From contig CANLRN010000016.1 of the NCBI GenBank assembly GCA_947493495.1, forward strand, positions 1,404 to 65,403: 64,000 nucleotides of DNA. The letters run 5' to 3'. A program made the position numbers and the translations under genes. A model generated the notes under the pieces. It saw nothing but the letters and a program-made list of their open reading frames with translations, ran no database searches and was not told the origin of the DNA. Below, piece after piece: positions 2,631 to 43,601 of the stretch (position 1 is the first letter of the stretch; every line of letters starts with the position of its first letter). The DNA comes from an uncultured Aquimarina sp. Its GTDB lineage: Bacteria > Bacteroidota > Bacteroidia > Flavobacteriales > Flavobacteriaceae.

Positions 2631-2801
2631 AACCTGATGTATCCATTAAGAAATCTATTACATCTTTCAACTACTGCAAACACTACCGTTTCACTATATT
2701 TTTTAATCTAACCGTAGCGGTGCTACGCTAAAATTAAGAAAACATCAATGTTTATTGTATTTGAAAGTCTCTTAACGAAATCTTAATGTATAAATCAGGT
2801 T
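2631..2801. repeat. 171-bp palindromic intergenic element, family I, copy 1
   Basis: Terminal inverted repeats AACCTGATGTATCCATTAAGA (2631-2651) and TCTTAATGTATAAATCAGGTT (2781-2801), 19/21 complementary. Central hairpin ACCGTAGCGGTGCTACG at 2711-2727. Homologous to 23379-23467, 27240-27410 and 43431-43601. Confidence 0.8.
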
Positions 2802-2866
2802 AAATGTAGCAATATATTGTAGTTGGAAAGGTTAAGATTTTCTTAATATAAAATACAAAGAATAAG

Positions 2867-3685
2867 TTATTCATATCCTCTCATATACTCCTCTCCTTCT
2901 TCTAGTTGTATCGATTCTTCACCTGTACCAATCAAAAATTTTACGGGCACTGTCTCTCTATTAGTAAACCGCTGTAAGAACACAATAAAATGCAGATGTG
3001 GTCCTGTAGACCATCCTACATTACCACTATACCCAATATGTTGTCCTACTTTGACATCATCACCTGGAGTAACAATAGCGCCTCCTTTTCTAATATGCGT
3101 ATACTCTGCAAAAGTACCATCTGTGTGGTATATTAAAATGTAATTATTAAACTTAGCACAATCCTGATTGGTACAGGTTGTATCAAAACTTTTTTCCACC
3201 AATACTACTCTCCCACTTCTTGCAGCATATATTGCTGTCCCTATTGGCATCCTAAAATCTAACGCATATTCTCCTTGATGTGATATAGTACCATTATAGC
3301 CTTGCGTAACTGTATATTTACTTCCTTTTTTATAAGGTAAATAATACTCATGTTCTTTGTCATAGGTTGTTTGTAAATGGTTCCCATGATTGTAGCGAAC
3401 TTTATATCCTAATCCAATTGCTTTTTTTCTATCTATCACGGTTAGATCAGCAATATAATGAGCTGTTGTTAACTCCGGAACCTCAATGATTTTTGTGGCA
3501 CCAATACTGGATGTTAAATTGTCTATCTCAAAATTTATTTCTAAAGATACGGGGCTATACTCTCCATTATCGGCATATATTTTATATCCATTTTCTGCTT
3601 CTTCATAATATACTTTGAAGTTTTCTTGAGCACTTGTAGCCATAGATCCCAAAAGGATCCAAAACGCAACTCTTTTCATATTCAT
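2867..3685 (-). CDS. M23 family metallopeptidase (LytM-like), secreted
   Basis: HQGEYALDF (HxxxD) and STGPHLHF (HxH) zinc motifs; N-terminal signal peptide. Confidence 0.9.
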   Translation of the reverse strand: MNMKRVAFWILLGSMATSAQENFKVYYEEAENGYKIYADNGEYSPVSLEINFEIDNLTSSIGATKIIEVPELTTAHYIADLTVIDRKKAIGLGYKVRYNHGNHLQTTYDKEHEYYLPYKKGSKYTVTQGYNGTISHQGEYALDFRMPIGTAIYAARSGRVVLVEKSFDTTCTNQDCAKFNNYILIYHTDGTFAEYTHIRKGGAIVTPGDDVKVGQHIGYSGNVGWSTGPHLHFIVFLQRFTNRETVPVKFLIGTGEESIQLEEGEEYMRGYE

Positions 3686-3899
3686 TGTATTTCCAATTAC
3701 CCATAAAAAATACAGTTTTTAATTGGTAATTGCTAATATCATTTTTTTAGGATGTATTAGAAAAGATGCACCCATTCTTATGCATGAGTCCTTTTGAATA
3801 TGAAAATTTCGAATAATTCCTTATTTATAACACCGTCTGAAGTTTAAATTTACTCATAAGAAAAACTCTTATAACATTAGAACAGAAATGGTGGTGGTA

Positions 3900-6449
3900 C
3901 TACTCTCTAAGTACCTTAATAATCGGTCCTTCTTCTGTTTTTAGGAAATACATCCCCTTTGGAAATGTTGATAAATCAACTGAAGATCCATTTCCAGTAT
4001 TAATAAGTTGTCCTAAGTCATTTATTAATATCCATTCATAATCCTTAGGAAGGTGTAAAACTCCATTTGTCGGGTTAGGATAAAAAAGCACCTTATTAGA
4101 ATTAATAACATCTGTAATACCTAATGTATTTTCATTTTCTAATATCCAATGTGCGGTATTATTTGCAGTAATAGCTCCTGCTGTAGAAAAGTTTCCAGCT
4201 GCAAATATTTTTATACTATCAATAGTAGTATCCTTGGAAAAAACCATAGCATTTATCTTAACATCCACTCCTACATTAGTATCTGTACCCATTGCCTCCC
4301 AACTATTTGATTCACTCCATCGGGCAATATTATTAACTATAATATCATTATTAGCGCTTATTCCTGCTGTATTAAAAGCTCCTCCAGCATACAAATAGGC
4401 TCCGTCATGAAGCAAAGAAGTTACATTGTTATTTACTCCACTACCTATGATGTTCCAACTAGAGGAAGATTTATTCCACTGCGCAATACGATTGACTGTG
4501 TTATTACCTGCAAGTGCAAAGTTTCCTCCTATAAAAACAGCTGAAGAAGTTGCGACAATTGCTTCTACAAAACCACTAGTTCCTTCACCTAATGTCCCCC
4601 AATTTGTTCCATTCCAGGTTGCAATTCTATTCGCTATATTTCCTCCAGCTTCATCAAAATTTCCTCCAACATATAAAATCCCATCACTATCTATTTCTAG
4701 AGATCTGATCTCATTATTCGTTCCTGCATCAGATGTAGCAGCATCTGCTAATGCAACCCATTGATTCCCATTCCAAAATGCAATATTTCTAGCTGTTGTT
4801 CCTGTATTAATTGTTTCAAAAACTCCTCCAGCATATACATTCCCATTTTCATCTATTTCCATTGCGAGTATGGTGCCATCAATACCGGGCCCTAAAGCTT
4901 GCCAAGAGCTTCCGTCCCATACAGCTATATTATTAGCAGCTACTCCTCCTATTTCTGTAAAAGATCCTCCAGCGTATAAATTCCCATTAGGAGCAATTTT
5001 TAAAGCATTTATAGTACCATTGGCTCCTCCATTTAATACTGCCCATCCAGAAGTTTCATTCCATACAGCAATATTATTTACTGCTACAGTACCTGCTTGA
5101 TTAAAAGCTCCTCCGTGGTATACATTTCCGGCATCATCTGTTTCTATTGCTCGTATAGTACCATTAATACCTTGATTCAATGCTTCCCACTCTCCAATAC
5201 CATTTACGGCAGTCCCTGAAGGAGCAGAAGCACCATCTACCAGCTTAAAAAGTTTAGAATTACTACCATAATCACTAAAATATAGTTCTCCATCTTTATC
5301 GACTCCAAAAGAGGAAACAAATTCTCCTGAGGTCTTAAAAAGTAGTGTGCTACTAGCATCGCCTGTAGATGGATTATAATCTAGTACCCATACTCTACCA
5401 CTTACATAATCTCCAAAAATATATTTAGAAGTAATATCAGGACTTAGACTTGTCACTTTAGATCCTCTATATACATATCCTCCTGTTATAGAAACATCAC
5501 CTGCTAAATGATCATATGAAAATACAGGAAAGGTAGTAGGTCCATTTATAGTAGTTCTACTATTTGCTACACTGGTAGCTTCAAAACGATTCCAACCATA
5601 ATTCCCTCCATTTTCTATAAGGTTTATTTCTTCAAAAACACCTTGACCTACATCCGCTCCCCATAACCTACCTGTAGTGGTATCGAAAGAAAATTTCCAA
5701 GTATTTCTAATCCCATATGCATAAATCTCATCCAATCCATTTCTCCCTACAAAAGGGTTATCGCTAGGGATCTCATAATTACCATTAGGTAAAGTAGGAT
5801 TAGTTTCTATTGGATTACTTCCATCTACATCTACATCAATACGGCAAATACTACCAAAAACAGTATTGATATTCTGTGCATTTCTTCTAGGGTCATTACC
5901 TCCACCACCATCTCCAAAGGAAATATACAGATAATTATCTGGTCCAAAAGCGATTTTACCACCATTGTGATTTCCGTTTCTTTGATTTTTATCAAATCTA
6001 AAAAGTACCAATTCACTATCAGGATCTACTCGATTATTGTTCGTAGGGTCTACTGAGAATCTTGATAATACTATTCTCACAGATACTCCTTGTACTGGAC
6101 TATTAGCTGTATAATACACATACAAATAGCCATTAGAATCAAATTCTGGATGAAAAGCAAGCCCTAATAACCCTAATTCTTGTCCTGTTATAAAACGTAC
6201 TCGATCTGTAATGTTAAGAAATGTACTAACCTGATTCGGAGTGACATTTCTTCTTCTAGGAAATACTTTAATTCGTCCTCTTTGCTCTACGATAAACATC
6301 CTGTCTGTACCATCTAAGGGAGATTGTATTTCTATAGGAAATTCAAAACCAACATTAGGAAATGCTGATTCATATGTAACTTGGGCTTGTATACTAAAAA
6401 AAGTAATTAATACTGTAAATACAGTACACGTTTTGGTAAAGATTTTCAT
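3900..6449 (-). CDS. PQQ-dependent glucose/sorbosone dehydrogenase-like domain + GGxF/NNIAxW beta-propeller repeats + T9SS C-terminal sorting domain
   Basis: GLLGLAFHP, HNGGKIAFGPD, YAYGIRNTWKFSFD and ITGGYVYRG motifs; repeated GGxF...ANNIAxWxG units; C-terminal FYPNPTNG...GMYFLK; signal peptide. Confidence 0.85.
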   Translation of the reverse strand: MKIFTKTCTVFTVLITFFSIQAQVTYESAFPNVGFEFPIEIQSPLDGTDRMFIVEQRGRIKVFPRRRNVTPNQVSTFLNITDRVRFITGQELGLLGLAFHPEFDSNGYLYVYYTANSPVQGVSVRIVLSRFSVDPTNNNRVDPDSELVLFRFDKNQRNGNHNGGKIAFGPDNYLYISFGDGGGGNDPRRNAQNINTVFGSICRIDVDVDGSNPIETNPTLPNGNYEIPSDNPFVGRNGLDEIYAYGIRNTWKFSFDTTTGRLWGADVGQGVFEEINLIENGGNYGWNRFEATSVANSRTTINGPTTFPVFSYDHLAGDVSITGGYVYRGSKVTSLSPDITSKYIFGDYVSGRVWVLDYNPSTGDASSTLLFKTSGEFVSSFGVDKDGELYFSDYGSNSKLFKLVDGASAPSGTAVNGIGEWEALNQGINGTIRAIETDDAGNVYHGGAFNQAGTVAVNNIAVWNETSGWAVLNGGANGTINALKIAPNGNLYAGGSFTEIGGVAANNIAVWDGSSWQALGPGIDGTILAMEIDENGNVYAGGVFETINTGTTARNIAFWNGNQWVALADAATSDAGTNNEIRSLEIDSDGILYVGGNFDEAGGNIANRIATWNGTNWGTLGEGTSGFVEAIVATSSAVFIGGNFALAGNNTVNRIAQWNKSSSSWNIIGSGVNNNVTSLLHDGAYLYAGGAFNTAGISANNDIIVNNIARWSESNSWEAMGTDTNVGVDVKINAMVFSKDTTIDSIKIFAAGNFSTAGAITANNTAHWILENENTLGITDVINSNKVLFYPNPTNGVLHLPKDYEWILINDLGQLINTGNGSSVDLSTFPKGMYFLKTEEGPIIKVLRE

Positions 6450-6683
6450 TAGTTTGAGTTTATGATGTATCTATGTGTGTTGTTCTGGAACGCAAAAAGA
6501 AGTATTATAGTATGTTAACATTCTTCAATACTATAGAGCTACCTTAAAAATAGCTTTATACTATATTTACTCCTAGAGAGTTAATCCTGTTACAAATTTA
6601 TCTTCCCTTATGAGCTATCTTAACTCTTTATAAATTGAACTTATCTCAAGTATACTTATAGGTAGTAATACAATGATTAATGA

Positions 6684-8468
6684 TTAATAATTAAACTTAT
6701 ACGTTACACCTCCTAATACTTGTATTCCTTGAACAGGAAAGTGAGTCCAACGCTCATAATTCTCTCCTATTAGGTTATTCCCTTTTAAGAAAACTGATAA
6801 TTTTTCATTAAATCGGTATCTCAGATTTACATTGGCATCAAAATAACTATCCAGAGTTATAGTAGCTTCTGGAGTGGGTGGCGTAAAAATGACTACATTA
6901 TTGATATCTTTTCGTTCACCTACATAAAATAATTGTGCTCCAGCAAACCATTTTTCTGTGATCTGATAATCTGAGAAAATGGATGCTTTTATGTCTGGCA
7001 AATTCCAAGCTTCTTGCTCATCTTCTGTAGTATAATCAAAATACTCGATCGAGGTCCCTAGTTTAAATTTTTTATTGATATTAAAATTTAATTCGCCATA
7101 TCCGCTTAGGGTAGTAATGTCATCGTATCTGTACGAAAACGAATTACCAAAGTCGTATCCTTGTAATTGTAAAGCCGTTGCTCTATTGTTAATAAAGAGA
7201 GGTTTATCATTCTCTGAGGCGTATCCACCTCTAAAATTATAACTTACTACATCAGATATTTTACCTTTTAGCCCTACATATCCATCAAACTGATTATGAG
7301 TAGGTGTTAATCGTAATGTAGGCGATACATATGGATTTGCTTGCACAGCATCTCGATAAGTATTTTGTTTTAGCCCTCCTTCTAACCCCCCATATGCAAT
7401 TACGAACTCGTCTAATAGCCTGTAAGATGCAGTCACCTTTGGATAAATAAATAGATCATTATCATTGTTCTTGCTATCTACACTGTATACTACTTCTGCT
7501 CCTAGGTTTACAGTAAGATTATCTCTTAATATTAGTAAGCTTGGGTGTATTCCTAAATTTAAAATCTGATAATCATTCTCTACTCCTATTTGCAATTCTC
7601 TTTCGAAATTTCCTTTAAGAAAGTCAACATTAAAATTAGTGGTAATCAGTTCATCTCCTACTTCAAACTCTAAGGTTGGAGTGATCTTAAAATGATTTTC
7701 TTTAGATTTTAAGGCATCTCCAAAATATCGATAATTTACCGTCACTTTTCTGAAATAAAGGTCTTTAAACTCGAATTTTCCACCAATTTTAGCTCCAAAA
7801 TAATTTTGAGTTGGATCAATAGCATCAATCTGTTGATCTGTTAGCACAGGGATTTCTGGCAAACCATACCAATTGTACAATTGGTGTTCTGCTCCTACTT
7901 CTATGCCATATACATAATCTTTGGTACGAGAGGTATAATTAAGGTCTAAAAAGGTATTATAGAATTTATCATCTAGTAGTACGTCCTTAATACCGCCTTG
8001 TGATGAATTATGATGTAGATATAACCCTATATTATCGGTGCGATCTATCTGAAAATTACTGTAGAACTCTGCTAAGGCAGATGTGAAATTACCAAATCCT
8101 AGCGTTGCATAATTGTCATATAGAGGAATCCGTTTAGGTTTATCAATATTTGCTGCTTTTCCTTTTGCAGGGGTAAATGTAGAAGCCACAGGAACTGAAA
8201 ATATACTATACCTAATCTGTTTCTTTTTTTGGGTCACAGAATCATTAAGGATAGGAGTTGATTTTACTTTAAAAGCATCACTAATTGTAGGCGTATATGC
8301 TTTTACTATGACTAATTTTTCGGTTTCTATAGTCTCCTCTTCTTTTTCTTTTTCTTGGGCTATGATATCCAAAGAAAAAATGAAGAATAAAAAAAATAAG
8401 GCTATTATACATTTCGCAGGTCTCAGATATTTATAAGATCTGTTCATTTTATTTTTATATCTAAACAT
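6684..8468 (-). CDS. TonB-dependent-receptor-like outer-membrane beta-barrel protein
   Basis: Amphipathic beta-strand pattern, C-terminal GIQVLGGVTYKFNY, signal peptide; directly downstream of the TPR gene. Confidence 0.75.
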   Translation of the reverse strand: MFRYKNKMNRSYKYLRPAKCIIALFFLFFIFSLDIIAQEKEKEEETIETEKLVIVKAYTPTISDAFKVKSTPILNDSVTQKKKQIRYSIFSVPVASTFTPAKGKAANIDKPKRIPLYDNYATLGFGNFTSALAEFYSNFQIDRTDNIGLYLHHNSSQGGIKDVLLDDKFYNTFLDLNYTSRTKDYVYGIEVGAEHQLYNWYGLPEIPVLTDQQIDAIDPTQNYFGAKIGGKFEFKDLYFRKVTVNYRYFGDALKSKENHFKITPTLEFEVGDELITTNFNVDFLKGNFERELQIGVENDYQILNLGIHPSLLILRDNLTVNLGAEVVYSVDSKNNDNDLFIYPKVTASYRLLDEFVIAYGGLEGGLKQNTYRDAVQANPYVSPTLRLTPTHNQFDGYVGLKGKISDVVSYNFRGGYASENDKPLFINNRATALQLQGYDFGNSFSYRYDDITTLSGYGELNFNINKKFKLGTSIEYFDYTTEDEQEAWNLPDIKASIFSDYQITEKWFAGAQLFYVGERKDINNVVIFTPPTPEATITLDSYFDANVNLRYRFNEKLSVFLKGNNLIGENYERWTHFPVQGIQVLGGVTYKFNY

Positions 8469-8494
8469 AAGATATTTTATTTTACAACTGATTA

Positions 8495-11400
8495 TTACTG
8501 TTCGGTTTGGATAGATGAATTCGTTTTTGCTTCTTCGGTTTTGATTTTACTAAGCTCAGATTTTGCTTCTCTAACCACATCTGGATAGTCATTAAAATTT
8601 TTAGTAACACTCTCTAAGATATACGTTGCTTGATATGCATCTCCTAAGCTGTAAAAGTTTTTTGCCATCAAGACCAATCCTTTAGCACCATATAATTTAT
8701 AGCCAGAATAGTTTTTGGCTAATTTTTGTACTGCTTCATTAGATGTTTTATAGTCCCCATCTTTGTATTTATAGAATGCATCATAGTATAATGCTTCGGC
8801 GGCTAGTGCTCCTGTTGCTATTTTTTGTACCTCAGCATATGCTTTTTTGGCTCTGACATCATCAGATGTTTGCAACGCTGCTCTGGCTATAAATATCTGT
8901 GCATCACTTTTTACATCGTTTTGTATTTTAGGATTTTCTAATACTTTTTCTGCATACTGGATAGTCTCCTGATAATGTACTAATTGATAATGTGCTTTCA
9001 TCAGATTAGATTGTGCAAATATGATATTCTGAGGAAAATCTGCTTCTTTTTCTAGTCGTTCTAATATAGGAATCGCTTTTTCGTAGGTTTTATTTTCTAA
9101 ATATATCTGCGATAATTGCACAAGAGCTTGTTCTGTATACTCTGTACGCTCATTCTGTACTATATATTGATAATGTGTTATGGTTTCTTGTTTATCACCT
9201 TTTTTATATAATAATTCTGCCAGATAAAAATGACTTTTTAAGGCATGTAATCCTTTGGGAAATTCGTTTAAATATTTTTGAAAACCTGTAATAGCTGCCG
9301 TTGCACTTCCTTCTAGGAATTGTTTTTCGGCCGCTTCATATGACGTATTATCTAGGTCAGCATCTGTAACATCTACAAAGCTCAAGCCTTTTACCCAATC
9401 CGAATATTCGCTAGTTCTTCCTAAATCTACATATATTAATCTTGCTGTATTTACGGCTTGTACGGCTTCGTCTGTTCCCGGAAAATCTGCTACTACTTTT
9501 TTAAATTTAGTCAGTGCTCTATCGCCTTGATTTCCATTATAGTATATCAAACCTTGTTTTAATAGCACTTTAGGGACGTAAGAACTTCTAGGAACTTCTC
9601 TGATTAATTGATCATAGACTTCGATCCCGCGGCGTGTATTATTTTCTGCTACGTAGGTGTTCCCTAATGCGAATATAGCATCATCTCTATAAGTAGATCG
9701 AGTGTATTTTTTTAGAAAAAGTTCTAAATCACTTATTTTTTTATCATTCTTTTTTACAAACCCGTAACTTATTGCTTTCTGATAGTGTGCATAATCAGCA
9801 TCGGCTCCTCCTTTTTTTATTGCTTTATTGTAAGCTTCCATGGCTGGCCAATAATTACTAGTAATAAAATGGCTATCTCCAAGTCTTAGGTAGGTATCTG
9901 TTAATCGCACTTCATCTACACTACTTTTTTTAGTATATGTGTCAAAAAAATTAGCTGCCTGCTTATATTGTTTTAATTTGAAATAGGTATATCCTAAATT
10001 ATAATTTATATGTTCATACTCGGTAGTAGAATTAGCCTCTGCACTACCACTAAATTGCTTAAAACCAACTAATGCTTCATCATAATTATTTAGCAAGTAA
10101 TCACTTTCTGAATTCCAATAGATTGCTTTTGCTGTATATTTAGGATCTGTCTGTTGTGTTAGCGATTTTTCAAAATACTTTTTTGCATCAGGGTAATTAC
10201 CTTCATTATATAATTCTATTCCACGAAAAAAGGCAACCTTCTGATATACTGCCTTGTCTTCGAACTTACGACTGCCTTCTAGCAATTCCATAGCTTCTTT
10301 ATAATTTTTGGAAGTAATATATGAGCTGATTAATAGTTCTTCTATTTCACTTTTATGCTCTGCATTTCCATAGGTGTCTATATATCTAAGTAATACTTTG
10401 GATACAGGTTCATATGAGTTTCCTATCTCATAACTTAGTTTTGCGTAATTTACAAGAGCATCTTCTTGGATCTCTGCACTAAACTCCATCTCTGACGCAT
10501 TCTTAAAAGCATTTAATGCTTCTTGCTTTTTATCAGATTTAAGATATGATTCTGCTAGATGATAGTATGCATTCTGAGCAGTGGCATTACTCCCACCAAT
10601 AATTTTATTAAATTCTGATATGGCATTGGTATAATCTCCTCCTTTGTAATAGGCATAGCCTAATTGATAATAATCTGTATTATTCCATTTGCCTTTTCTT
10701 CCTTTATATCCTTTTAGATATGGAATTGCTTTATCATATTGTTCTAGATTAAAATAGCTTTCTCCTATGATTTTATTGAGTTCTGATTTTTCGGATGGTT
10801 TTGAATTGGGTAATTGTCCTAGACCATCATCAATAGCTTTCTGAAACTCTCCAGATTTAAAATTCATATCACTCTGGAAATACGATAGATTTTTATTGTA
10901 TTGATCCAGATCTTTTACCTCATCAAAAAGTTTATCGGCCTCTTGGTAATTATCACCTTCATAGGCTATAAATCCTAAATAATATTTAGCTTGTGCTCCA
11001 TATTCATCAGATTCTGCAACCTTGTTTAAAAATTTTTTAGCTTCATTAAATCGTTGAATCTTAAAATAGGCATATCCGTTATTAAAATTAAATTTCTCTT
11101 TCTGAGAACGATTCATATTGCCTTCATCTACCTTATCATACCATTTACGCGCATATGCATATTTACCATTGTCAAAATAGTAATTAGCTACATCCAGATA
11201 GGCAGCATTACGCTTAATACTGGTAGGGTATTCTGTAACAAAATCCTCCATCAATCCATCTGCCCCTTTTTGATTAAGCCATACTGCACAATTAGCAATA
11301 TAGTACGTACATTCAGCATCTATATTTTCATCATCTACACTATCACGTACTTTATCAAATAGATTCTGAGCAGCTAAAAACTGTTTATTATTATACAATT

Positions 11401-11512: not shown

Positions 11513-11690
11513 ATATTTCTTTAAAATTTAGATATTATAGTATATACCAGAATATCTGATTACTAGAAATTTCAAGGATTGGCCTTGACCAAATTTTTAA
11601 AAGAGTAAATATCGCTTCCCGTGAATAATTTTTGTGTTAAAGATACCCTAATCTTCATCTTAATAACGAAACATTTTAGAGATAATTACA

Positions 11691-12620
11691 TTAGGGCTCA
11701 TTTTTTGGATTGGTTAGTATCTCATTTATGATTTTTGTATATTTTTTTGCGCCTTTTGGGTTCAGATGATCCGCATCATAAAAATCTGTGTCTTCTAATC
11801 TAGAATCTGCTCTCAGATTGATATACTTTGCATTAGAATTAGCACTTTCTAATATTTGACAACTTGTTGTGATCTTTTTCAATTTTTTCATGTTTAAGGC
11901 ACTCAAATAACAGCTATGCACTGGTAGATCCACTAAATAAACAGTACAGCTTATTTTTTTGCAATAATCAATGACAGATTGGATTCTAGCAAGATTTCGT
12001 TCAAAATCTAGTGATCCATCTATATGCATTCTCGCTCTTTCTAATCCATTTTTACATAGATCAATATCGCTACTCACATTATAGATGTTTCCCCATCCAT
12101 TCTTATCACATTTTACGTGTGTCCCCTTATCAAAATAGTCTTTGATAAATTCTAAGGAGCTACTAAATCTACGAGTAAGTGACAAACTATAGTTTTTAAT
12201 ATTAAATATAGAAACAATTGGTACTTCTAATTCCATTTGGTTACTATAAAAATATTTTCGCCAGTTATCTTCTTTAGTATCTTCTTTCTGACTTAGATTA
12301 AAATAACTAATCGTAAAAATGAGTTGTTTTAGGTTTTTTAGACTATCAATATGTTTTTCAAAAAGTAATTCATCAAAATAGAGTGATTGACTCACATTGG
12401 CTATATTAAATGCTTTTGCATCTAAATATGCTGGATTAATACCGTACAATGCGTGGGAATCTCCTAAAACCAGCGTTTCTATCGTACTGTAATTTTCAGT
12501 AATTTTTTGATGCTTATATGAATAGTTAGATGCTGTCGTTCGATAAAAATATTCTAAAGCCCCCCAAATGAGTAATATTGGGATTAGAAAAATCACTATT
12601 TTTTTTAGAAAAACCTTCAT
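11691..12620 (-). CDS. SGNH-hydrolase-like (AlgJ/DltD-type) membrane-anchored acyltransferase partner
   Basis: N-terminal TM anchor, LVLGDSH (GDS block I) and DADHLN (DxxH) motifs; starts 2 bp after the MBOAT stop. Confidence 0.65.
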   Translation of the reverse strand: MKVFLKKIVIFLIPILLIWGALEYFYRTTASNYSYKHQKITENYSTIETLVLGDSHALYGINPAYLDAKAFNIANVSQSLYFDELLFEKHIDSLKNLKQLIFTISYFNLSQKEDTKEDNWRKYFYSNQMELEVPIVSIFNIKNYSLSLTRRFSSSLEFIKDYFDKGTHVKCDKNGWGNIYNVSSDIDLCKNGLERARMHIDGSLDFERNLARIQSVIDYCKKISCTVYLVDLPVHSCYLSALNMKKLKKITTSCQILESANSNAKYINLRADSRLEDTDFYDADHLNPKGAKKYTKIINEILTNPKNEP

Positions 12621-23323: not shown

Positions 23324-23477
23324 TATTCATATGAAATAAGCCATAACAATTATGTGGATGTCCATCGATATGATGATATAGCGTAGCACCTATGGTTAGA
23401 TTAAAAAACATAGTGAATCGGTAGTGTTTGCAGCAGTTCAAAGATGGAATAGATTTCCTAATGAATAATAGGGTTAA
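23324..23477. repeat. Mosaic family-I palindromic element (divergent left arm + family-I hairpin and right arm)
   Basis: 23379-23467 aligns to the reverse complement of 2640-2730 at 81/91 (hand count). 23330-23383 aligns to the reverse complement of 553-605. Imperfect terminal IR TATTCATATGAAAT / ATTTCCTAATGAATA. Confidence 0.75.
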
Positions 23478-23613
23478 AAATAACTAAACACTCTTAAGTT
23501 CTGAGGTTATATTTTGATAATAAAATTGATTTATTTGTGTTTTTTAACGATAAAAAAGTGTATTTTACCGATGTTTAATTGTTTTTTACAAGTTTTAAGC
23601 TTGTTATACTGTG

Positions 23614-25777: not shown

Positions 25778-25961
25778 TTAACCCAGAAAATTCATGGTTT
25801 TTCGTTATGAAAAGTCAAAACACCAAGATATGTGGTAAACGCAGGAATTTTTATCCGAAGAAATTGTAACCCAATTTTGAGGATATACAATTTCGAGTAG
25901 TATCAGATACCGCTGATGGTTTGGCTTTGGAATAGAAATAAGCATGAATTTTCTGGGTTAA
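25778..25961. mobile_element. 184-bp MITE-like or internally deleted IS remnant
   Basis: Perfect 19-bp terminal inverted repeats TTAACCCAGAAAATTCATG (25778-25796) and CATGAATTTTCTGGGTTAA (25943-25961). No transposase-length ORF inside. Confidence 0.6.
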
Positions 25962-26049
25962 ACTCGAAGTATGCATTGAAACTATATTATGACGCTTTGA
26001 GACGCAATAAATATGGATTTTCATAATTTCTGCATAGCTACCTGGTTAA

Positions 26050-26253
26050 ACCCAATTTATCAATGCCAATAATACTCTAAGATTAAGTGTTTATGATAGA
26101 ACTGGAAAAACCATAGTATCTAATCTTATAAGAAAGGATGCCAATAGTAGATTTTTATATACGCTTGATATGTCTTATGCCAGTACAGGTGTTTACTTTG
26201 TACAATTAGGAAACAGTAATACTAGAAAATCGGCCAAATTTATAGTCAATTAA
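26050..26253 (+). pseudogene. Orphan T9SS C-terminal sorting-domain remnant without start codon
   Basis: Stop-to-stop frame TQFINANNTLRLSVYDRTGKTIVSNLIRKDANSRFLYTLDMSYASTGVYFVQLGNSNTRKSAKFIVN*, with typical CTD elements (VYDxTGK, lDMSxxxxGVYFV, KFIV). Preceded by in-frame TAA at 26047. Confidence 0.65.
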
Positions 26254-27239: not shown

Positions 27240-27410
27240 CAAAGGCTATATCCAATAGAACTTTGATATCAAGTTTAAAGATATCATACTTATCGATACT
27301 TTTATGATTTTAGCATAACAACACTATGATAAAATCAATAAATAGAGAGAAGCACCAGTATTTGCAGTAGTTCTAAAATGTAATAACATTTCTATTGTAT
27401 AAATCCGGTT
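27240..27410. repeat. ~171-bp palindromic element, family I, degenerate copy
   Basis: Centre TAGCATAACAACACTATGAT is homologous to TAGCGTAGCACCGCTACGGT. Shares TTTGCAGTAGTT (27361-27372) with copy 1. Ends ATAAATCCGGTTTAA. Confidence 0.6.
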
Positions 27411-27515
27411 TAAGTCTCTTTAAAGAATTCATCGCAAAGGGATAAAATTCATATACTATTTTTGGTAGTTTTTACGTTTATAATATTCAACATAACTTAT
27501 CTTAAAACCAAAAAA

Positions 27516-34251: not shown

Positions 34252-34255
34252 TAAC

Positions 34256-34861: not shown

Positions 34862-34893
34862 AAAAACCTTGAAAAACCAATTCAAGATCACAC

Positions 34894-35187: not shown

Positions 35188-35207
35188 TCTATTTTTTTTA
35201 CTATTAA

Positions 35208-35229
35208 ACTTTGAATTTCAAAGTACTTT
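35208..35229. promoter_or_regulatory. Palindromic operator candidate, copy 2
   Basis: ACTTTGAATTTCAAAGTACTTT, 21/22 identical to 34230-34251; lies in the gap before ORF 35282. Confidence 0.6.
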
Positions 35230-35281
35230 AATAAACAAAATATCAGAAATAATAAAAACAACTTTCTTAATTAAAACTATT

Positions 35282-35590
35282 ATGAGAATACTACAACCAG
35301 TAAACAAAAATGCATTATTCATTGCCACTATAAGTTTTTTAGTCGGTACAATACTATTGATATCATACGTAATGATTGATTGGGATACATTAATCCCTAT
35401 CGGTATATTTTATGTTTTAATCGCTTTTACATTAAACATTATCACTCTTGTTGCTGTTATTGCCAATAGTCTTATCAACTATCATTTATATAAAGAAAAC
35501 GTACTCACCGTAGTACTCTTTTTGATAAACATACCTGTAGCTATTGGATATTTTTTAATAGTAATCAATCTTCCTTTTCAAAACATATAA
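35282..35590 (+). CDS. Small membrane protein (about 3 TM)
   Basis: 102 aa, highly hydrophobic, co-oriented within the operon. Confidence 0.7.
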   Translation: MRILQPVNKNALFIATISFLVGTILLISYVMIDWDTLIPIGIFYVLIAFTLNIITLVAVIANSLINYHLYKENVLTVVLFLINIPVAIGYFLIVINLPFQNI

Positions 35591-35594
35591 CTTC

Positions 35595-36245: not shown

Positions 36246-36265
36246 TTTTATAATTTTTTAAAACT

Positions 36266-37627
36266 ATGGAAACTAAAAAAGGAAAAAAGTCATTTGGTCA
36301 ATGGATCAAAACATCAATTACCGTAAGAATGTTAATGGTGGGTATACTCATACTAGTATTACTCATCCCTTTATCGTATGTAAAGAATTTAATTCGGGAA
36401 CGATCTCTCAGGCAAAAAGAAGTCATTAGCGAAATCAATCAAAAATGGGGTAATGAAGTACTATTATATGGCCCTATACTTAAGGTTCCATATCAAACAC
36501 ATAATATAAAAAAGACCTGGAATGAAGAGACAAAATCTTATTTTCAGGAAGATATTATATCTATAAAAAATGCATATTTCTTTCCAAATGATCTTGATAT
36601 AAATGGAAATGTAGATGTGGATGCAGAAAACCTAAAACGAGGTATTTACACCTCTGCAGTATACACTGCAGATATGAAGATAAAAGGATCTTTTGCCATT
36701 CCCAATTTTGAATCTCAGGATATCACAAATACAGATATTTTATGGAATAAAGCTACAGTACTTATAAACTCTACTAATCTAAAAGGTATTAAAAGCAACC
36801 TACAAATAGCATTAGAAACTGAGTCTTATCCATTAAGATCTCGCTATTCACAGGATTCATATACCAATACATTAGAAACTAAATTTATAAAAGAAACATC
36901 GTTACCAATAACAAAAGCTATTAATTTTAACCTTGATCTAAAAGTGAATGGTAGCGAATACCTGCGTTTTATCCCTGTTGGTAGAGAAACCAATGTTTCT
37001 CTAGATTCCAATTGGGCCTCCCCTAGTTTTGATGGCAACTATTTACCTGATCCTAAGACAAAATCCATTACCGAAAATGGTTTTAAAGCAAATTGGAAAG
37101 TACTAGAAATTAACCGAGAGTTCGAACAAGAATTTTTTGGCTCCTTGCCACAGATAAACTCATCTGCATTTGGCGTAAAATTATTTATCCCTGTAGATGA
37201 GTATCAAAAAAGTGAACGAGCAACAAAATATGGATATCTAGTCATTGCATTGACATTCTTAGTGTTTTTTTTAATACAAGCAGTAAGTAAAATTAATATA
37301 CACCCTTTTCAATATCTAATGATAGGATTAGCAATGACAATGTTTTATACGTTACTGATATCAATCTCTGAGCACTCTAGCTTTTTAAAAGCCTATAGCA
37401 TTGCAGGTATCGCAGTAGTTCTTCTGATAGCAACATACTCCAAAACAATATTGAAGAGCTTCAAGTTCATGGGACTTATCGGAGCTTCATTAGCTGCGCT
37501 ATATACTTTCATTTTTGTCATTATACAATTAGAAAACTACGCATTACTAGTAGGTAGCATAGGTTTATTCTTAATTCTTGGAACAATTATGATGGTATCC
37601 AGAAAAATTGATTGGGGAGAAGAATGA
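36266..37627 (+). CDS. creD: Inner-membrane protein CreD
   Basis: RGIY, FIPVGRET, WASPSFDG, YQKSERATKYG and IHPFQYLMIGLA motifs; C-terminal TM cluster. Confidence 0.9.
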   Translation: METKKGKKSFGQWIKTSITVRMLMVGILILVLLIPLSYVKNLIRERSLRQKEVISEINQKWGNEVLLYGPILKVPYQTHNIKKTWNEETKSYFQEDIISIKNAYFFPNDLDINGNVDVDAENLKRGIYTSAVYTADMKIKGSFAIPNFESQDITNTDILWNKATVLINSTNLKGIKSNLQIALETESYPLRSRYSQDSYTNTLETKFIKETSLPITKAINFNLDLKVNGSEYLRFIPVGRETNVSLDSNWASPSFDGNYLPDPKTKSITENGFKANWKVLEINREFEQEFFGSLPQINSSAFGVKLFIPVDEYQKSERATKYGYLVIALTFLVFFLIQAVSKINIHPFQYLMIGLAMTMFYTLLISISEHSSFLKAYSIAGIAVVLLIATYSKTILKSFKFMGLIGASLAALYTFIFVIIQLENYALLVGSIGLFLILGTIMMVSRKIDWGEE

Positions 37628-37667
37628 GTATTCATAAGTAAAAATAAGTACTGGTTAGTTTATTGAG

Positions 37668-37706
37668 AAAAAGTCGTACTTCAGGTTTTCGAAGTGCGGC
37701 TTTTTT
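37668..37706 (+). terminator. Intrinsic terminator after creD
   Basis: AAGTCGTACTTC...GAAGTGCGGCTT stem (with G-U pairs) followed by a T tract. Confidence 0.65.
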
Positions 37707-37735
37707 ATCTACTTTTAGCTTCTAAAGCTTCCATA

Positions 37736-38230
37736 ATGAAAAAAAATATCTTTTTACTACTCATAGCCACTACTACTTTATTTATTTCTTCTTGTAAAAA
37801 AGAGACTGATAAAAAAATTGTAACCGAAGAAATACAATTTAAGAAAGAAGGTGAGCTTTCTATATATACCATAAAAGATACAATTTCTAGTGAGGTCATG
37901 AAATTAGATATCGAGATTGCTGATAATAATTATGAAAGAGAAACTGGTTTGATGCATCGAAAATCTATGGAGAAAAACCAAGGGATGTTATTTATCCAAG
38001 AAAAATTGAAACCGCAAAGCTTTTATATGAAAAATACATTAATTCCTTTGGATATAATTTTTATTGATGATCACTATAAAGTTGTAAGTGTTCAGAAAAA
38101 TGCAAAACCATTAGACGAAACTTCGCTTCCCTCAGAGAAACCAGCGCTATATATCTTAGAAATCAATGCGGGCCTATTCGATCAATGGAATATAAAAATT
38201 GGAGATTCTTTTGCATTTAAGAAAATGTAA
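37736..38230 (+). CDS. DUF192 family lipoprotein
   Basis: Lipobox FISSC; RETGLMHR, GMLF, SFYMKNTLIPLDIIF and YILEINAG motifs. Likely start ATG 37736. Confidence 0.88.
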   Translation: MKKNIFLLLIATTTLFISSCKKETDKKIVTEEIQFKKEGELSIYTIKDTISSEVMKLDIEIADNNYERETGLMHRKSMEKNQGMLFIQEKLKPQSFYMKNTLIPLDIIFIDDHYKVVSVQKNAKPLDETSLPSEKPALYILEINAGLFDQWNIKIGDSFAFKKM

Positions 38231-38395
38231 TACGATTTATGGATGAGAATTTCGTAAAAATAATGGCAAGGATTTTTCGCTAGATTGATGAATCAAATTA
38301 AAGAATAGCCATAGCTATTGTTTCATTTTATGAAGAAAATATAGTAGAAAAAGAATGTCATTAGATGCGAAATTTTTATTCGTAAATCGTATAAT
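38227..38395. repeat. 169-bp palindromic intergenic element, family II, copy 1
   Basis: Ends GTAATACGATTTAT...TAAATCGTATAAT with ~29-bp imperfect IR; central AATAGC-CATA-GCTATT at 38304-38319. Its reverse complement starts and ends like 59073-59240. Confidence 0.75.
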
Positions 38396-38516
38396 ATAAA
38401 TTTTCTTTTACAGTACATCTATAGAATAAACGGTATTACTTTTATAAAAAAGAAAAATCTATTGCAGACACAATAGATTTTTCTTGTAAAATTTATTTTG
38501 AGTGTATCCGGTATAG

Positions 38517-41500
38517 TTAACTTACTAACTCTTCAACAACTTCGGTCTTCTTTTTTTCTTTTAACCCTACTTTGCTTACTGTATCATACATTACAGGTGT
38601 TGCAATGAATAAGGATGAATAGGTACCTACTAGCACACCAATAATTAATGAAAACATAAACCCTCTTAATGGTTCTGCAAAAATAAAGATGGCGATCAAT
38701 ACTAGTAATGTAGTTAATGAGGTATTCAACGTACGGCTCAATGTACTATTCAATGCGCCATTAATATTCTTATCTAATGGCCAAGAGGTATGTTCTGCAA
38801 AATACTCTCGTATTCTATCAAACACCACCACGGTATCATTCAATGAATATCCAATTACAGTCAATATCGCTGCTATAAATGCCTGATCGATTTCCATATT
38901 AAATGGCATAAATTTCCATGTCAATGAGAATACACCTAATACTACCAATACATCGTGGAATACTGCCGCCACAGCACCTAAACTAAATTGCCATCTTCTA
39001 AACCTAAATAAGATATATAAGAAGACTACAATTAGAGATCCTATTACAGATATAAACGCTGCTTGCTTAATATCATCTGCAATGGTAGGTCCTACTTTTA
39101 TAGAAGACATAATACCCACTTGCTTATCTTCTGCTCCATCAGAGAATTGTCGATATTCCATCCCCTGAGGAAGATAGGGTTTCAAAGCTTTGAATAATGA
39201 ATTAGAAATCTCAGAATCTACAGCTTCACCAGTTTCATCGATTTTATATTTGGTAGTAATTTTCAATTGATTGTTTGCACCTAGGGTTTTTGCTTGAGCA
39301 CTCCCAAATTCTGCTATCAATACTTTTTCTACATCGGTAGGCACCACATCATTGGCAAAACGTACCGTATATGTTCTACCTCCTACAAAATCAACGCCTT
39401 GATCCAATCCTTGCGTAAACAAAGAGGCAAGACCAGCTACAACAATTACAGCAGAAATCACATATGCAATCTTTCTTTTACCTAAGAAATTAACATTCAT
39501 ATTAGCAAACCAATTTTTGGTTATCGCTGTAGAAAATGCTAGCTCTTTACCATTTTTACCATATCCATCAATAAATAATCTAGTGATAAAAATTGCCGTA
39601 AACAGAGAAGTCAAAATACCAATCAATAAGGTAGTTGCAAATCCTTTGATAGGCCCTGTCCCAAAATAGAAAAGGATTAATCCGGTAAGACCTGTAGTAA
39701 TATTGGCATCTAAGATCGAAGATAATGCATTATTAAATCCATCTTTAATAGCGTCTTTCTGTATTTTGCCTTTGGCTAATTCTTCTTTAATTCTTTCAAA
39801 AATAAGTACGTTGGCATCTACCGACATACCAATCGTTAGTACAATACCAGCAATACCAGGTAAAGTAAGTACTGCTTTTAGTCCTGCTAATACACCAAAA
39901 ATAAATAAGATATTTACTACCAATGCTATATCTGCAAAAACACCTGCTTTTCCGTAATAGAAAACCATCCAAATCAATATCAATGCCAATGCAATTGCAA
40001 ACGACATCGTACCACTATTAATTGCCTCTTGTCCTAATGACGGCCCCACTATTTCACTCTGTATAATATCTGCAGATGCTGGCAATTTACCAGCTCGCAA
40101 TACATTGGCCAAATCTGTTCCTTCTTCTACAGTAAAATCTCCTGATATCTGGCTGTTACCTCCACTTATCGCACCAGTAGTAACTCCAGGAGCAGAATAT
40201 ACAATATCATCTAGTATAATAGCAATTTGACTTCGTTGCGTAAACGCTTTGCCTGTCATTTCTTCCCATTTCTTAGCTCCTTTACCGTCCATCTGCATAG
40301 AGACAACAACCTGATTCAACTGATCATAAGTCTGAGAAGCATCTGTTATTACACCTCCACTTAATTCTGGCACATTATCACGATTTCCTTTAATAGCATA
40401 TAAGTCTAAAATATCAGAATCTTTGGTTTGTTTTCCCCAAGCAAATTTAGCATATCGCAAATCACCTGTTAATAATGATTTTACCTTAGGGTTGTTAAGA
40501 TAGTTATTAAATTCTGCCGTGTCTTTTATCGCTACTCTAGCAATAACAGGACCTCCTTGCCCTCCTTGACCTGCTAATAAATCAAAAATAGGATTTACCT
40601 GATCTTCAACATCTGTAGAATCTTCTGAATCTGCTAGTAATTTTTCAATTTCGGCATCTGCATCAGTGGCTGTAGAATCTACTTGTGTAGAATCGATAAT
40701 TTTATCTACAGATTCTGCTATCTCTATTTTTTCTTTAGTATCTTTTTTCGTCTTTTCTATATCTTCTTTCAATACATTGTTTGCAGAAACTAGCACATTA
40801 AAAACCTCTTCCATCTTAAATACATCCCAGAATTCTAACTGCGCTGTACTCTGTAATAATCTCCTAACACGATCTACATCTTTTGCTCCAGGCAATTCTA
40901 CCAAGATACGTCCAGACTCACCTAGTCGTTGAATGTTTGGTTGTGTAACTCCAAACTTATCAATACGCTTACGTAGTACCTCGAATGCTGAAACAACTGA
41001 TTCATCAATTTTTCTTTTCAGAATTGGCTTGACTACATCATTAGACATATCGAATGTGATATCATCACTTAAATTCTTATTAGCAAAAATATCTGGAGAT
41101 GCCAATTGCGTATCTGGTATCTTTTCAAACTCTGTAAAGAAATCTTCTACATAGGTATTCTGACTATTTTTTTGAGTTTGATCTGTGGCTAGCAAAGCTT
41201 GGTTAAAAGCTGGGTTTTTCGAATAGTTGGCCAGTCCTTTTAATATATCTTTTACAGAAATTTGGAGTATTACATTAATACCTCCTTCAAGGTCAAGTCC
41301 TTTATTCAATTCTTTGCTTTTAGCATCATTATAGCTATAATTGGCAAAAATTGGTTCTTTGCCAATAGAATCTAAATAGCTACGTTGAGCTGTTTCTCTT
41401 AGATTCGAATAATCAGCTACAGTTTCTGGATATTTATTGATCGCATATCCTTCTGCTTCTTTTTCTTTTGTGTATGTTAAGTATGTAAACGATAGTTGGT

Positions 41501-41558
41501 ATACACATACCAATCCAAATAAGATCGCAAACATCCTAACAAGTCCTTTATTTTGCAT
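38517..41558 (-). CDS. secDF: Protein translocase subunit SecDF (fused)
   Basis: GLDLEGG, RILVELPGA, VGPSLG, LTLPGIAGIVLTIGMSVDANVLIFERIKEE and GYSLNDTVVVFDRIRE motifs. Confidence 0.97.
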   Translation of the reverse strand: MQNKGLVRMFAILFGLVCVYQLSFTYLTYTKEKEAEGYAINKYPETVADYSNLRETAQRSYLDSIGKEPIFANYSYNDAKSKELNKGLDLEGGINVILQISVKDILKGLANYSKNPAFNQALLATDQTQKNSQNTYVEDFFTEFEKIPDTQLASPDIFANKNLSDDITFDMSNDVVKPILKRKIDESVVSAFEVLRKRIDKFGVTQPNIQRLGESGRILVELPGAKDVDRVRRLLQSTAQLEFWDVFKMEEVFNVLVSANNVLKEDIEKTKKDTKEKIEIAESVDKIIDSTQVDSTATDADAEIEKLLADSEDSTDVEDQVNPIFDLLAGQGGQGGPVIARVAIKDTAEFNNYLNNPKVKSLLTGDLRYAKFAWGKQTKDSDILDLYAIKGNRDNVPELSGGVITDASQTYDQLNQVVVSMQMDGKGAKKWEEMTGKAFTQRSQIAIILDDIVYSAPGVTTGAISGGNSQISGDFTVEEGTDLANVLRAGKLPASADIIQSEIVGPSLGQEAINSGTMSFAIALALILIWMVFYYGKAGVFADIALVVNILFIFGVLAGLKAVLTLPGIAGIVLTIGMSVDANVLIFERIKEELAKGKIQKDAIKDGFNNALSSILDANITTGLTGLILFYFGTGPIKGFATTLLIGILTSLFTAIFITRLFIDGYGKNGKELAFSTAITKNWFANMNVNFLGKRKIAYVISAVIVVAGLASLFTQGLDQGVDFVGGRTYTVRFANDVVPTDVEKVLIAEFGSAQAKTLGANNQLKITTKYKIDETGEAVDSEISNSLFKALKPYLPQGMEYRQFSDGAEDKQVGIMSSIKVGPTIADDIKQAAFISVIGSLIVVFLYILFRFRRWQFSLGAVAAVFHDVLVVLGVFSLTWKFMPFNMEIDQAFIAAILTVIGYSLNDTVVVFDRIREYFAEHTSWPLDKNINGALNSTLSRTLNTSLTTLLVLIAIFIFAEPLRGFMFSLIIGVLVGTYSSLFIATPVMYDTVSKVGLKEKKKTEVVEELVS

Positions 41559-41763
41559 TATTTGTTGATTTTAGTCAAACCTGCAACCTATAAATATTTC
41601 TATTATATAGTAATGATCTGACAATTGTTGTTAATTAATTTTATTATTGTGTAAACAAGCTTGATCACAGTATTTAGACTGATAAGCTTGATCAAAAAGT
41701 TGATAGTCATACTAAATTAGTATTCTTTATAACCTTAAAAAATAGAGTTTTAGGAATTCCTAA

Positions 41764-42390
41764 TTAAGAAATGGGACCAGCTCTGATTTCTGGAACATCA
41801 TATGAAGTAACACCTATTGCAACAGCAATGGTTGTTCGTATTTTCTGGGTGATTTTTATATTAGTATTGATCCCCTCGTAGCCACCAATTATAGCGAAAA
41901 CATTATGGGAATCATCACCCGTATATTTCTTTTGTTCTTGTTTTACTTCTAAAACTTGTGCTCTAGAGTAATCAATATCAAAATTCGTGCTTTTTTGAAT
42001 CTCATGTACATCAAAACTATAGTCTTTAGGATCTTCATCTAAAGGCAATTTTTCTGTCTCTCCTTCATCGCCAGTATAATAAATATGTCCTAATGTTACA
42101 TTTTGATCCTTAGAAAGGATTCTTTTGATAAGTGCTACATCCGCGTCACTATAATAGGAGATCTTTAGTTTCCCCTTTTTTAGTTCTTTAGATATTCTAG
42201 TATGCTGTACACCTATAGATTGTAACTGTTTCGTTACATCTGATATGGCGTTTTGAACCTCTGTAGCGCTTACCTCACTGCTAGTAAATTCTAATACAAT
42301 TTCTTGGTTAGGCACAACGGATTGCTGCTGCACAATAACAAGTAATGCTAGTGCAGATAGTAAAGTCCCGAAGTACCATTTTTTCTTCAT
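41764..42390 (-). CDS. Hypothetical membrane-anchored protein upstream of secDF
   Basis: 208-aa ORF with N-terminal TM; TATATTTG -7 element at 42395-42402 (minus strand) just upstream. Confidence 0.7.
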   Translation of the reverse strand: MKKKWYFGTLLSALALLVIVQQQSVVPNQEIVLEFTSSEVSATEVQNAISDVTKQLQSIGVQHTRISKELKKGKLKISYYSDADVALIKRILSKDQNVTLGHIYYTGDEGETEKLPLDEDPKDYSFDVHEIQKSTNFDIDYSRAQVLEVKQEQKKYTGDDSHNVFAIIGGYEGINTNIKITQKIRTTIAVAIGVTSYDVPEIRAGPIS

Positions 42391-42526
42391 TTGGCAAATA
42401 TAAAAAAATTAAAACTGCATTACTAAAGTCTCTACATAAATATCTTTTTTATCTAAAAAAATTATTTTTACTTGTGATCGTATCCATATGATACTATATT
42501 AATATAGTTTACATTCATCAAACGAC

Positions 42527-43327
42527 ATGACTAAAGATATCAAGCAATATTTCAAAACAAATGCTACTACTTGGAATAAAAAAGTAGAGATACACGCTGC
42601 TAGTAGTTTTTACGATCTAAATGGGTTTAAAAAAGGAGCTTCTTCTCTCAATCAATATGAACTTGAGGCCTTAGGAGATGTAACTGGCAAAACATTATTA
42701 CATCTACAGTGCCATTTTGGGATGGACACACTAAGCTGGAGTAGAATGGGCGCAAAGTGTACGGGAGTCGATCTGTCTGATCAAGGGATTAAATTAGCAA
42801 AACAATTAAATACAGAATTACAATTAGATGCTTCATTTACCTGCTGCAATGTATTGGATACCGCTATTTACATAAAAGATACATTTGATATTATATATAC
42901 CAGTTATGGAGTTATTGGTTGGTTACCCGATCTAAAGCCTTGGGGCAGAATGATTGCAGAACGACTTAAAAAAGGAGGCGTATTCTACATAATTGAATTT
43001 CATCCTATTGCATGGATGTTTGACTATCAAAAAGAAAAACCAAGTATTACATATGGATATTCTCAAAAAGAAGTGATTTATGAAGAGTATAAAGGCACCT
43101 ATGCGGATACAAATGCGGATATGATCAGCAAAGAATATGGTTGGAATCACGGATTAGGAGAAGTAGTATCTTCATTGTCTGAAGCTGGTTTAACTATCGA
43201 ATACCTGAGAGAGTATGATGCATCACCATATAATATATTTCCTAAGATGATTAAAAACAAACAAGGAATGTATGAGCGTATTAACAAATTATACCCATTA
43301 TTATTTGCCATTAAGGCTTTTAAGTAA
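42527..43327 (+). CDS. Class I SAM-dependent methyltransferase
   Basis: LLHLQCHFGMDTLS..RMGA..TGVDLS motif I variant; FDIIYTSYGVIGWLPDL. Confidence 0.88.
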   Translation: MTKDIKQYFKTNATTWNKKVEIHAASSFYDLNGFKKGASSLNQYELEALGDVTGKTLLHLQCHFGMDTLSWSRMGAKCTGVDLSDQGIKLAKQLNTELQLDASFTCCNVLDTAIYIKDTFDIIYTSYGVIGWLPDLKPWGRMIAERLKKGGVFYIIEFHPIAWMFDYQKEKPSITYGYSQKEVIYEEYKGTYADTNADMISKEYGWNHGLGEVVSSLSEAGLTIEYLREYDASPYNIFPKMIKNKQGMYERINKLYPLLFAIKAFK

Positions 43328-43430
43328 CAATTCATTGATAATTTTTTTACATTTGTTGAAGGTTTTAATGTTTGCATAAGCTCTAAAACACAGAGCTAGT
43401 TTGTCTAGAACATTAAGACTCGGGTTTTTT

Positions 43431-43601
43431 AACTCGTATCATGCATTAGAACTTCGTTATGAAGGTTGAAACTACAATAAAATATGACAATTTATTAATT
43501 TCATCATAGTATCATTATGGTTAAATTAAAAATTGTAGTAAAACACCATATCTTGAAGAAGTTTCAAGATGTAATAGATTTTCTAATGCATAATTCGGGT
43601 T
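43431..43601. repeat. 171-bp palindromic element, family I, full-length copy
   Basis: TIR AACTCGTATCATGCATTAGAA / TTCTAATGCATAATTCGGGTT. Shares AAGATGTAATAGATTT (43566-43581), TTCGTTA and TACAATAAA with the reverse complement of 2631-2801. Same 171-bp length. Confidence 0.75.

Follow-up and report, generated by a model that had tools for sequence, protein, structure and literature searches.

A 167-bp MITE family in an uncultured Aquimarina sp. and its IS1380-type partner

The window analyzed here, a stretch of 64,000 nt from an uncultured Aquimarina sp. (contig C16, positions 1404-65403), belongs to a genome assembly (G000) of 5.02 Mb in 333 contigs with 32.8% G+C. It contains copies of a short palindromic repeat, family I, which an earlier sequence-only reading had described as a REPIN/MITE-like element of about 171 bp, present in at least four copies. 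We found family I to be a real, well-defined family of miniature transposable elements with inverted repeats (MITEs) with an identified partner, an insertion sequence (IS) of the IS1380 type; it is fairly ordinary selfish DNA and not a REPIN. The element comprises 167 bp (CCCG...CGGG), carries no gene and is too short to hold one for a transposase.

Copies were located by an nhmmer profile that was built from the genome copies and run on the window's own genome. Two full copies (c1 and c4), a decayed copy (c3), a half copy (c2) and a fifth piece of 83 bp were found in the window, with the following features:

2628-2632 (no strand): left target-site duplication of c1, TTAAA, identical in sequence to 2800-2804
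2631-2801 (plus strand): nhmmer match of c1, model positions 1-171, E = 2.7e-42
2633-2799 (plus strand): c1, element proper, full-length 167-bp MITE, CCTG...CAGG (nhmmer, BLAST to genome copies, long-hairpin fold)
2713-2727 (plus strand): apical hairpin of c1, CGTAGC-GGT-GCTACG (folds; helix 5 of the cross-species consensus)
2800-2804 (no strand): right target-site duplication of c1, TTAAA (sequence)
23379-23471 (minus strand): nhmmer match of c2, model positions 6-100 only, E = 2e-20
23379-23473 (minus strand): c2, half copy consisting of the left arm as far as the central hairpin (nhmmer; inverted matches)
25962-26050 (minus strand): nhmmer match of the fifth piece, model positions 77-170, E = 7.7e-8
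25963-26045 (minus strand): fifth piece, 83 bp, right arm, central hairpin to tip (nhmmer; sequence)
27240-27408 (minus strand): c3, old decayed copy (nhmmer; sequence)
27249-27410 (minus strand): nhmmer match of c3, model positions 1-162, E = 5.8e-18
43428-43432 (no strand): left target-site duplication of c4, TTTAA (sequence)
43432-43601 (minus strand): nhmmer match of c4, model positions 1-170, E = 3.8e-31
43433-43599 (minus strand): c4, element proper, full-length 167-bp MITE, CTCG...CGGG on the plus strand (nhmmer; empty sister sites)
43600-43604 (no strand): right target-site duplication of c4, TTTAA (sequence)

The four copies on which the sequence-only reading was built are all real by profile and sequence, and c1 and c4 do span 171 bp when their AA/TT tips are included. 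The identity of 81/91 that it gave for one arm of two copies was also reproduced (89.0% over 91 nt, besides a match of 78 nt at 90%). The count of four needs amendment, however: c2 is a half copy, one end of c3 is decayed, and the fifth piece had been missed. A small hairpin (ACCG-TAG-CGGT) was correctly placed at the exact center of c1 (2711-2721), but the hairpin conserved in the family is a different one, CRTAGC-GRT-GCTAYG, which lies about 4 nt off center and overlaps the former in c1. The neighboring genes are those named before, encoding a DUF885 protein, a GSDH protein with a type IX secretion system (T9SS) sorting domain, and a FAD monooxygenase.

In the whole genome, family I occupies about 171 non-overlapping loci, as anticipated by the sequence-only reading, which had expected many more copies genome-wide. 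Full length was retained at 71 of these loci, the most frequent length being 171 bp with the AA/TT tips counted in; 20 loci touch contig ends, so the true count may be higher. Clustering of 96 near-full-length copies separated subfamily A (33 near-full copies, mean pairwise identity 96.9%), subfamily B (16 copies, mean identity 96.2%) and subfamily C (12 copies, 91.7%), beside which older singletons are present. Copy c1, with 85-87% identity to B copies, is related to subfamily B but older, and the closest genome copy of c3 is only 69% identical to it. Because three subfamily A copies, located at different sites with different duplications, are 100% identical, the last burst was recent. The genome further contains internally deleted forms of about 110 bp, besides copies that are halved or chimeric.

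The terminal inverted repeats are about 21 bp long, start with CCCG and are perfect in subfamily A; helix 1, the terminal helix, is conserved across species. When 48 full copies were aligned together with their flanks, the pattern TT-N, followed by AACC...GGTT and N-AA, became evident, with TT in 46 copies, AA in 45 and an N matching on both sides in 45, which gives TTNAA as the target. MITE copies of sister species likewise have TTNAA flanks. Since target and ends are both palindromic, the MITE copies alone fit a duplication of 1, 3 or 5 bp. Full-length relatives of the partner IS in other genomes (n = 36, ends CC...GG) decide this point: identical 5-bp flanks were observed in 23 of the 36, and off-consensus sites (TTTAT, ATAAA, TTTAG, TTCAC, TATAA and ATGAA) were duplicated whole. 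From this, a duplication of 5 bp follows, TTNAA being the preferred site; the AA/TT tips accordingly belong to the target, leaving 167 bp for the element proper. Inverted repeats ending in AAC.../...GTT within TTAA-like flanks, as previously described, stand as repeats of about 21 bp, but their terminal AA and TT have to be reassigned to the target.

The palindromic target and ends would also suit a MITE of another DDE family, of the IS5/IS1031 or PIF-Harbinger type, that duplicates the inner TNA only, or of one that duplicates a single base, with the outer T...A being part of the element. We consider this very unlikely, as the IS1380-family elements with the same ends duplicate five positions even off consensus, the scan for such ends gave no IS5-type element, and the only other IS examined has unrelated ends. 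This other IS, on a 1386-bp contig (C190), was rejected as a partner for the same reason, its ends (CATTGTTGTCCGAC...) being unrelated to family I. It contains a frame of about 414 aa (G000:C190) with a weak match to DDE transposase models.

The partner itself emerged from a genome scan for the terminal motif in which the MITE loci were left aside. It is an IS of about 1.4 kb (G000:C130:109-1501, plus strand) with a single open reading frame (ORF) running into its right end. The ORF matches the NCBIfam model NF033539 (IS1380) with 226 bits at a cutoff of 180 and Pfam PF13701 with 142 bits, and it is the sole IS1380-family match above cutoff in this genome. Counted by hand from the printed ends, the left end of this IS agrees with the end of subfamily A at 19 of 24 positions, and the right end of the intact IS of a sister species (G031) at 21 of 24. 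The IS is flanked by TTAAA on both sides once a nested insert of 137 bp (element Z) is discounted. Intact transposase frames of 434-438 aa are present in two sister species (G031 and G056), the one of 434 aa at L023:1336-2640. Copies are many in other Bacteroidota and in Verrucomicrobiota: relatives with 66-84% protein identity were detected in Salegentibacter, Algoriphagus, Roseivirga, other Bacteroidota and Verrucomicrobiota, with at least a dozen copies in one Roseivirga genome, and Aquimarina muelleri contains fragments of the IS at 93-96% identity, which makes Aquimarina the probable genus of the window as well. The earlier statement that no transposase lies nearby is true of the window, but the partner lies on another contig.

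We put at roughly 0.87 the probability that family I is a MITE family moved in trans by the DDE transposase of this 1.4-kb IS1380-family IS with the same ends. Copy number, inverted repeats, the 5-bp duplication, the ends and target common with the IS, empty sites and young subfamilies are direct observations. Five further observations count against this assignment: (i) the sole transposase gene is frameshifted in the assembly, by a 1-nt deletion in a T run compared with intact orthologues; (ii) the right end of the IS is interrupted by element Z; (iii) the MITE interior has no detectable similarity to the IS, only the ends of about 22-24 bp being common; (iv) of 61 genomes of the genus only 4 yielded this transposase, whereas the MITE is present in most; and (v) two species with many MITE copies (G010 and G016) have no detectable copy of the transposase. 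The MITE as a simple deletion derivative of the IS was rejected, there being no similarity beyond the ends.

In the proposed mechanism, the IS1380-family transposase, rather than another enzyme, would act in trans on the MITE ends, insert at TTNAA and duplicate all five bases, presumably by cut and paste as in DDE enzymes of the Tn5/piggyBac type. In the strain itself, activity has probably stopped or become marginal, because the only transposase gene is frameshifted.

The sequence-only reading had also pointed to a REPIN-like element; on that view it would be moved by a RAYT/IS200-type Y1 (HUH) transposase that recognizes the central or terminal hairpin. Family I is indeed palindromic with a conserved small hairpin, and the genome does encode Y1 transposase homologues (PF01797), at four IS200-like loci:

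G000:C48:31770-32108 (= L002:1471-1809): IS200-like Y1 locus, PF01797
G000:C72:21615-21899: IS200-like Y1 locus, PF01797
G000:C13:86681-86983: IS200-like Y1 locus, PF01797
G000:C45:2120-2467: IS200-like Y1 locus, PF01797

The best of them is a truncated ORF of 112 aa; in-frame stops interrupt the other three. Family I flanks none of the four, the nearest copies lying 1.4-69 kb away. Moreover, family I shows 5-bp target duplications, which single-strand transposition by HUH enzymes does not make, and its ends match a DDE element of the IS1380 type instead. Mobilization by RAYT is thus contradicted by the duplications, the ends and the unlinked Y1 loci, and we regard it as extremely improbable.

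Mobility of family I is evident from empty orthologous sites, for which c1 and c4 were compared; around c3, synteny is lost. The flanks of c4 are contiguous in at least nine sister species, where the MITE is absent from the orthologous spacer. In one of them (G049), the flank matches lie 4 bp apart, compared with 172 extra bases in the window. A single TKTAA-like site in the sister species corresponds to TTTAA-MITE-TTTAA in the window, so that the empty sites with target-site duplication called for earlier were found for c4. For c1, the syntenic spacer is shorter by 137-148 bp in three species and has no MITE match. No other assemblies for strain-level polymorphism were on record by exact-protein look-up.

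Within the genus, the family was detected in 13 of 18 sampled species, in large numbers in two of them, where counts in other genomes are matches and not copy numbers. The length of 169-172 bp and the TTNAA flanks are conserved across these 13 species. Beyond the genus, 4 of 150 other genera of the same family gave matches, at about 70-76% identity. With the MITE detected in 13 of 18 species and the transposase in 4 of 61 genomes, the former either persists longer or spreads more widely than its partner, as is usual for MITEs.

Placement in the genome was assessed with crude gene calls (ORFs of at least 100 aa, by which measure 85% of the genome is coding). Almost all copies (164 of 166) are intergenic, compared with about 8% expected at random placement, and the earlier description of an intergenic, many-copy, non-autonomous, MITE-like element is supported. 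A position just upstream of genes, which had been noted for three window copies, is not a property of the family: relative to co-directional neighboring genes there was no strand bias (18 vs 30, p = 0.11), and convergent spacers were over-represented (34/122, 28%, vs 356/2354, 15%; chi-square p = 0.0008).

Each copy folds end to end as a long imperfect hairpin, the fold z-scores being -8.8 (subfamily A) and -5.6 (c1) for RNA and -3.4 (subfamily B) for DNA. Pairing was followed across species in an alignment of 18 copies from 13 species. Its consensus structure has 49 pairs, and both-sided compensatory change was seen at 24 of these 49; helix 5, the apical hairpin, exists in G-C, A-U and G-U variants. 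In total, 94.4% of the cells were paired, compared with 82.1% in shuffled alignments (0 of 500 shuffles reached the observed value), and only 36-43% when partners were slid by 1-3 columns. The 91 distinct near-full copies within the own genome gave the same pairing picture on the consensus fold; RNAalifold run on these 91 copies returned an empty structure. On both sides, a stretch of about 13 nt (columns 23-35 and 138-151 of the alignment) is unpaired and conserved in sequence, and the left stretch differs from the right.

Repeated palindromization of the whole element does not account for this pattern, because the asymmetric stretch would become symmetric too. One-sided changes (G-U) are rare compared with double changes, and pairing at the DNA level therefore fits better than pairing at the RNA level. 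We infer that pairing is kept at the DNA level, either by selection on the folded strand or by repair between the arms. As regards the terminal helix, the two ends could have changed in parallel merely by following the specificity of the transposase.

These structural features bear on another alternative, namely that family I is an element selected by the host (an RNA hairpin, a terminator or insulator, or a protein-binding site) which merely resembles a transposon, or a MITE that was later co-opted for such a role. The co-varying arms (24 of 49 pairs across 13 species; 94% paired vs 82% shuffled and about 40% slid), the conserved sequence of the asymmetric internal loop and the enrichment in convergent spacers (28% vs 15%) would agree with a host function. 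The lack of strand bias relative to neighboring genes (18 vs 30, p = 0.11) and the rarity of G-U intermediates, which fits DNA-level over RNA-level pairing, argue against it, while presence/absence, duplications and 100%-identical copies show spread by transposition. Rfam offered no family either: the window had no match at gathering scores, Flavo-1 included, and young copies had none even at E <= 1, so the Rfam check suggested earlier brought up no existing family. We regard this alternative as unlikely overall. Its strong version is contradicted by the mobility evidence; later co-option is possible.

Besides full-length elements, the window contains partial copies whose junctions differ. The tip of c2 is followed by TTAAA (23474-23478), and at the central hairpin this half copy is joined to an arm of another repeat family (23330-23374); further half or chimeric copies in the genome share its central break point. 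The other repeat family is also represented at 561-605, which forms a 45-nt inverted match of 93% with 23330-23374. At C14:72571 and C261:259, a different foreign arm is joined at the same central point, indicating that arm swapping at the center recurs. The fifth piece lies between two TTAAA sites (25958-25962 and 26046-26050) and adjoins another small CCC...GGG element (25782-25957), with which it has one TTAAA in common. This neighbor is palindromic, measures 176 bp and has CCCAG...CTGGG ends; its three genome copies are 99-100% identical, and each is flanked by TTAA on both sides, a piggyBac-like signature with possibly a 4-bp duplication. The idea that half copies transpose independently, by way of a cryptic end at the center, was considered and rejected, since only the 83-bp piece of the window has matching TTAAA flanks, the others being chimeras or truncations. 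In c3, an intact tip at 27408 precedes TTTAA (27409-27413), and the opposite tip near 27240 is eroded.

Other small elements are associated with the same type of ends. Element X (342 bp, non-coding, TCCATCTAAC...AATGTCTATG; G000:C10:21513-21854 = L019:314-655) is present at about 45 other places in the genome, none of them in the window, and accounts for about 60 contig ends. Its orientation is constant: on one side lies the ...TGCAT/...TGAAT part of an IS1380-type end, on the other the last 10 bp of that end (AAT-N-C/T-GGGTT, followed by TTNAA). At least six different MITE bodies occur to the left of X, each combination at 2-5 loci. The 10 bp to the right of X are always of the 'AAT' type, even with an 'AAA'-type body on the left. 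Because many bodies occur on the left and the right 10 bp are always of one type, there are two possibilities: site-specific insertion of X, or recombination within the common end that gives rise to chimeras. The arrangement recurs in a sister species at 74% identity, and X has no match in Rfam. Short intergenic segments similar to its interior (positions 54-285), at 70-98% identity, were found in sister species, in about 33 of the 90 genomes of the genus (e.g. G097, L116:1490-1730). This interior has small inverted ends of its own (GTCCTATTGAAATTT-like), so X looks like a composite containing yet another mini-element.

The element that interrupts the partner IS, MITE Z (137 bp, ends CAATGTCGTTAAGTTAAGC, 9-bp duplication; G000:C130:1502-1638 = L001:1502-1638), has 20 other full copies in the genome. 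In at least 14 of the 21 copies, the duplicated 9 bp are terminal bases of a family I MITE or an IS1380-type element, and in one instance Z hit the right end of the sole transposase-bearing IS copy. The tips of IS1380-type elements and family I look like a preferred target of Z (TAAAT/TAATT-like). A further MITE family with the same type of ends, E2 (about 115 bp; G000:C75:23423-23531, C20:65-173, C86:1-111 and C62:~11540-11721), is identical in its left 27 bp to the left end of the IS1380-type element, and several E2 copies carry X. Finally, 'Family II' MITEs (TAATACGATTT... ends) lie in the window at 38227-38395 and 59073-59240, and also inside X copies (G000:C95 and C76), so that small elements in this genome are nested to a depth of at least three.

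Tips that collect two other mini-elements, together with the genus-wide co-variation of the arms, are the less ordinary features of family I. A tentative and rather doubtful idea is that the MITE may not simply be carried along passively. A folded form of its single-stranded DNA (or RNA) might itself be under selection, either because this form is what an IS1380/piggyBac-like reaction, excising seamlessly at TTNAA, truly acts on, or through a hairpin function at the level of the host, and the last 9-10 bp of its tips might serve as homing sites for two other non-autonomous elements. If the folded form is the substrate, or if the tips attract elements, family I would be a handy model for the recognition and nesting of small transposons. 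Otherwise, the gain is knowledge at the level of annotation, namely that these spacers hold selfish DNA and not regulators. The MITE family explains much of the genome's assembly into 333 pieces, and its approximately 170 copies with dated subfamilies form a clean natural data set for target choice by an IS1380-type transposase, a putative bacterial cousin of piggyBac that inserts at a piggyBac-like TTNAA site.

Among the closest known systems is the IS1380 family itself (NF033539; IS1380, ISEcp1), whose members have CC ends and duplications in the range of 4-5 bp (ISfinder tables). The partner passes the family model, has a length of about 1.4 kb with a single ORF, and shows CC ends with a 5-bp duplication; the MITE has the same ends and target but differs in that it is without transposase and has an unrelated interior. 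A literature search found no paper on IS1380-derived MITEs, on a strict TTNAA preference in this family or on TTNAA-targeting transposases, and none on MITEs in Aquimarina or Flavobacteriaceae.

The eukaryotic piggyBac elements and their MITEs resemble family I in their CCC...GGG ends and palindromic TTAA-like target, but differ in duplicating 4 bp, compared with 5 bp (TTNAA) here. IS1380 transposases have been used as the prokaryotic outgroup of piggyBac (PMC10813416). The partner transposase had no match by sequence in the PDB, and its AlphaFold model is poor (mean predicted local distance difference test score, pLDDT, 58). With this poor model, the best Foldseek match was Tn5 transposase, a weak one (E = 1e-3, template modeling score 0.28), and piggyBat ranked 21st without significance (E = 0.26). 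Kinship of the partner with piggyBac is a matter of the literature only.

With REPINs and their RAYTs, family I has in common that it is a short, abundant, intergenic and hairpin-forming repeat. No target duplications accompany REPINs, however, and these are linked to a single-copy Y1 transposase gene which they flank; family I fits neither.

Family I works like other bacterial MITEs, namely Correia (Neisseria), ERIC/IRU (enterobacteria), RUP (pneumococcus) and MITECca01. Like family I, these are elements of 100-250 bp with terminal inverted repeats and no ORF, present in tens to hundreds of intergenic copies with the potential to form long hairpins; in cases with a known partner, an IS transposase moves them in trans. 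Correia and RUP target TA. MITECca01 of Cardinium was derived from IS982 (PMC9769881). Correia, RUP and MITECca01 differ from family I in parent family and target, which here are an IS1380-type element and a 5-bp duplication of TTNAA.

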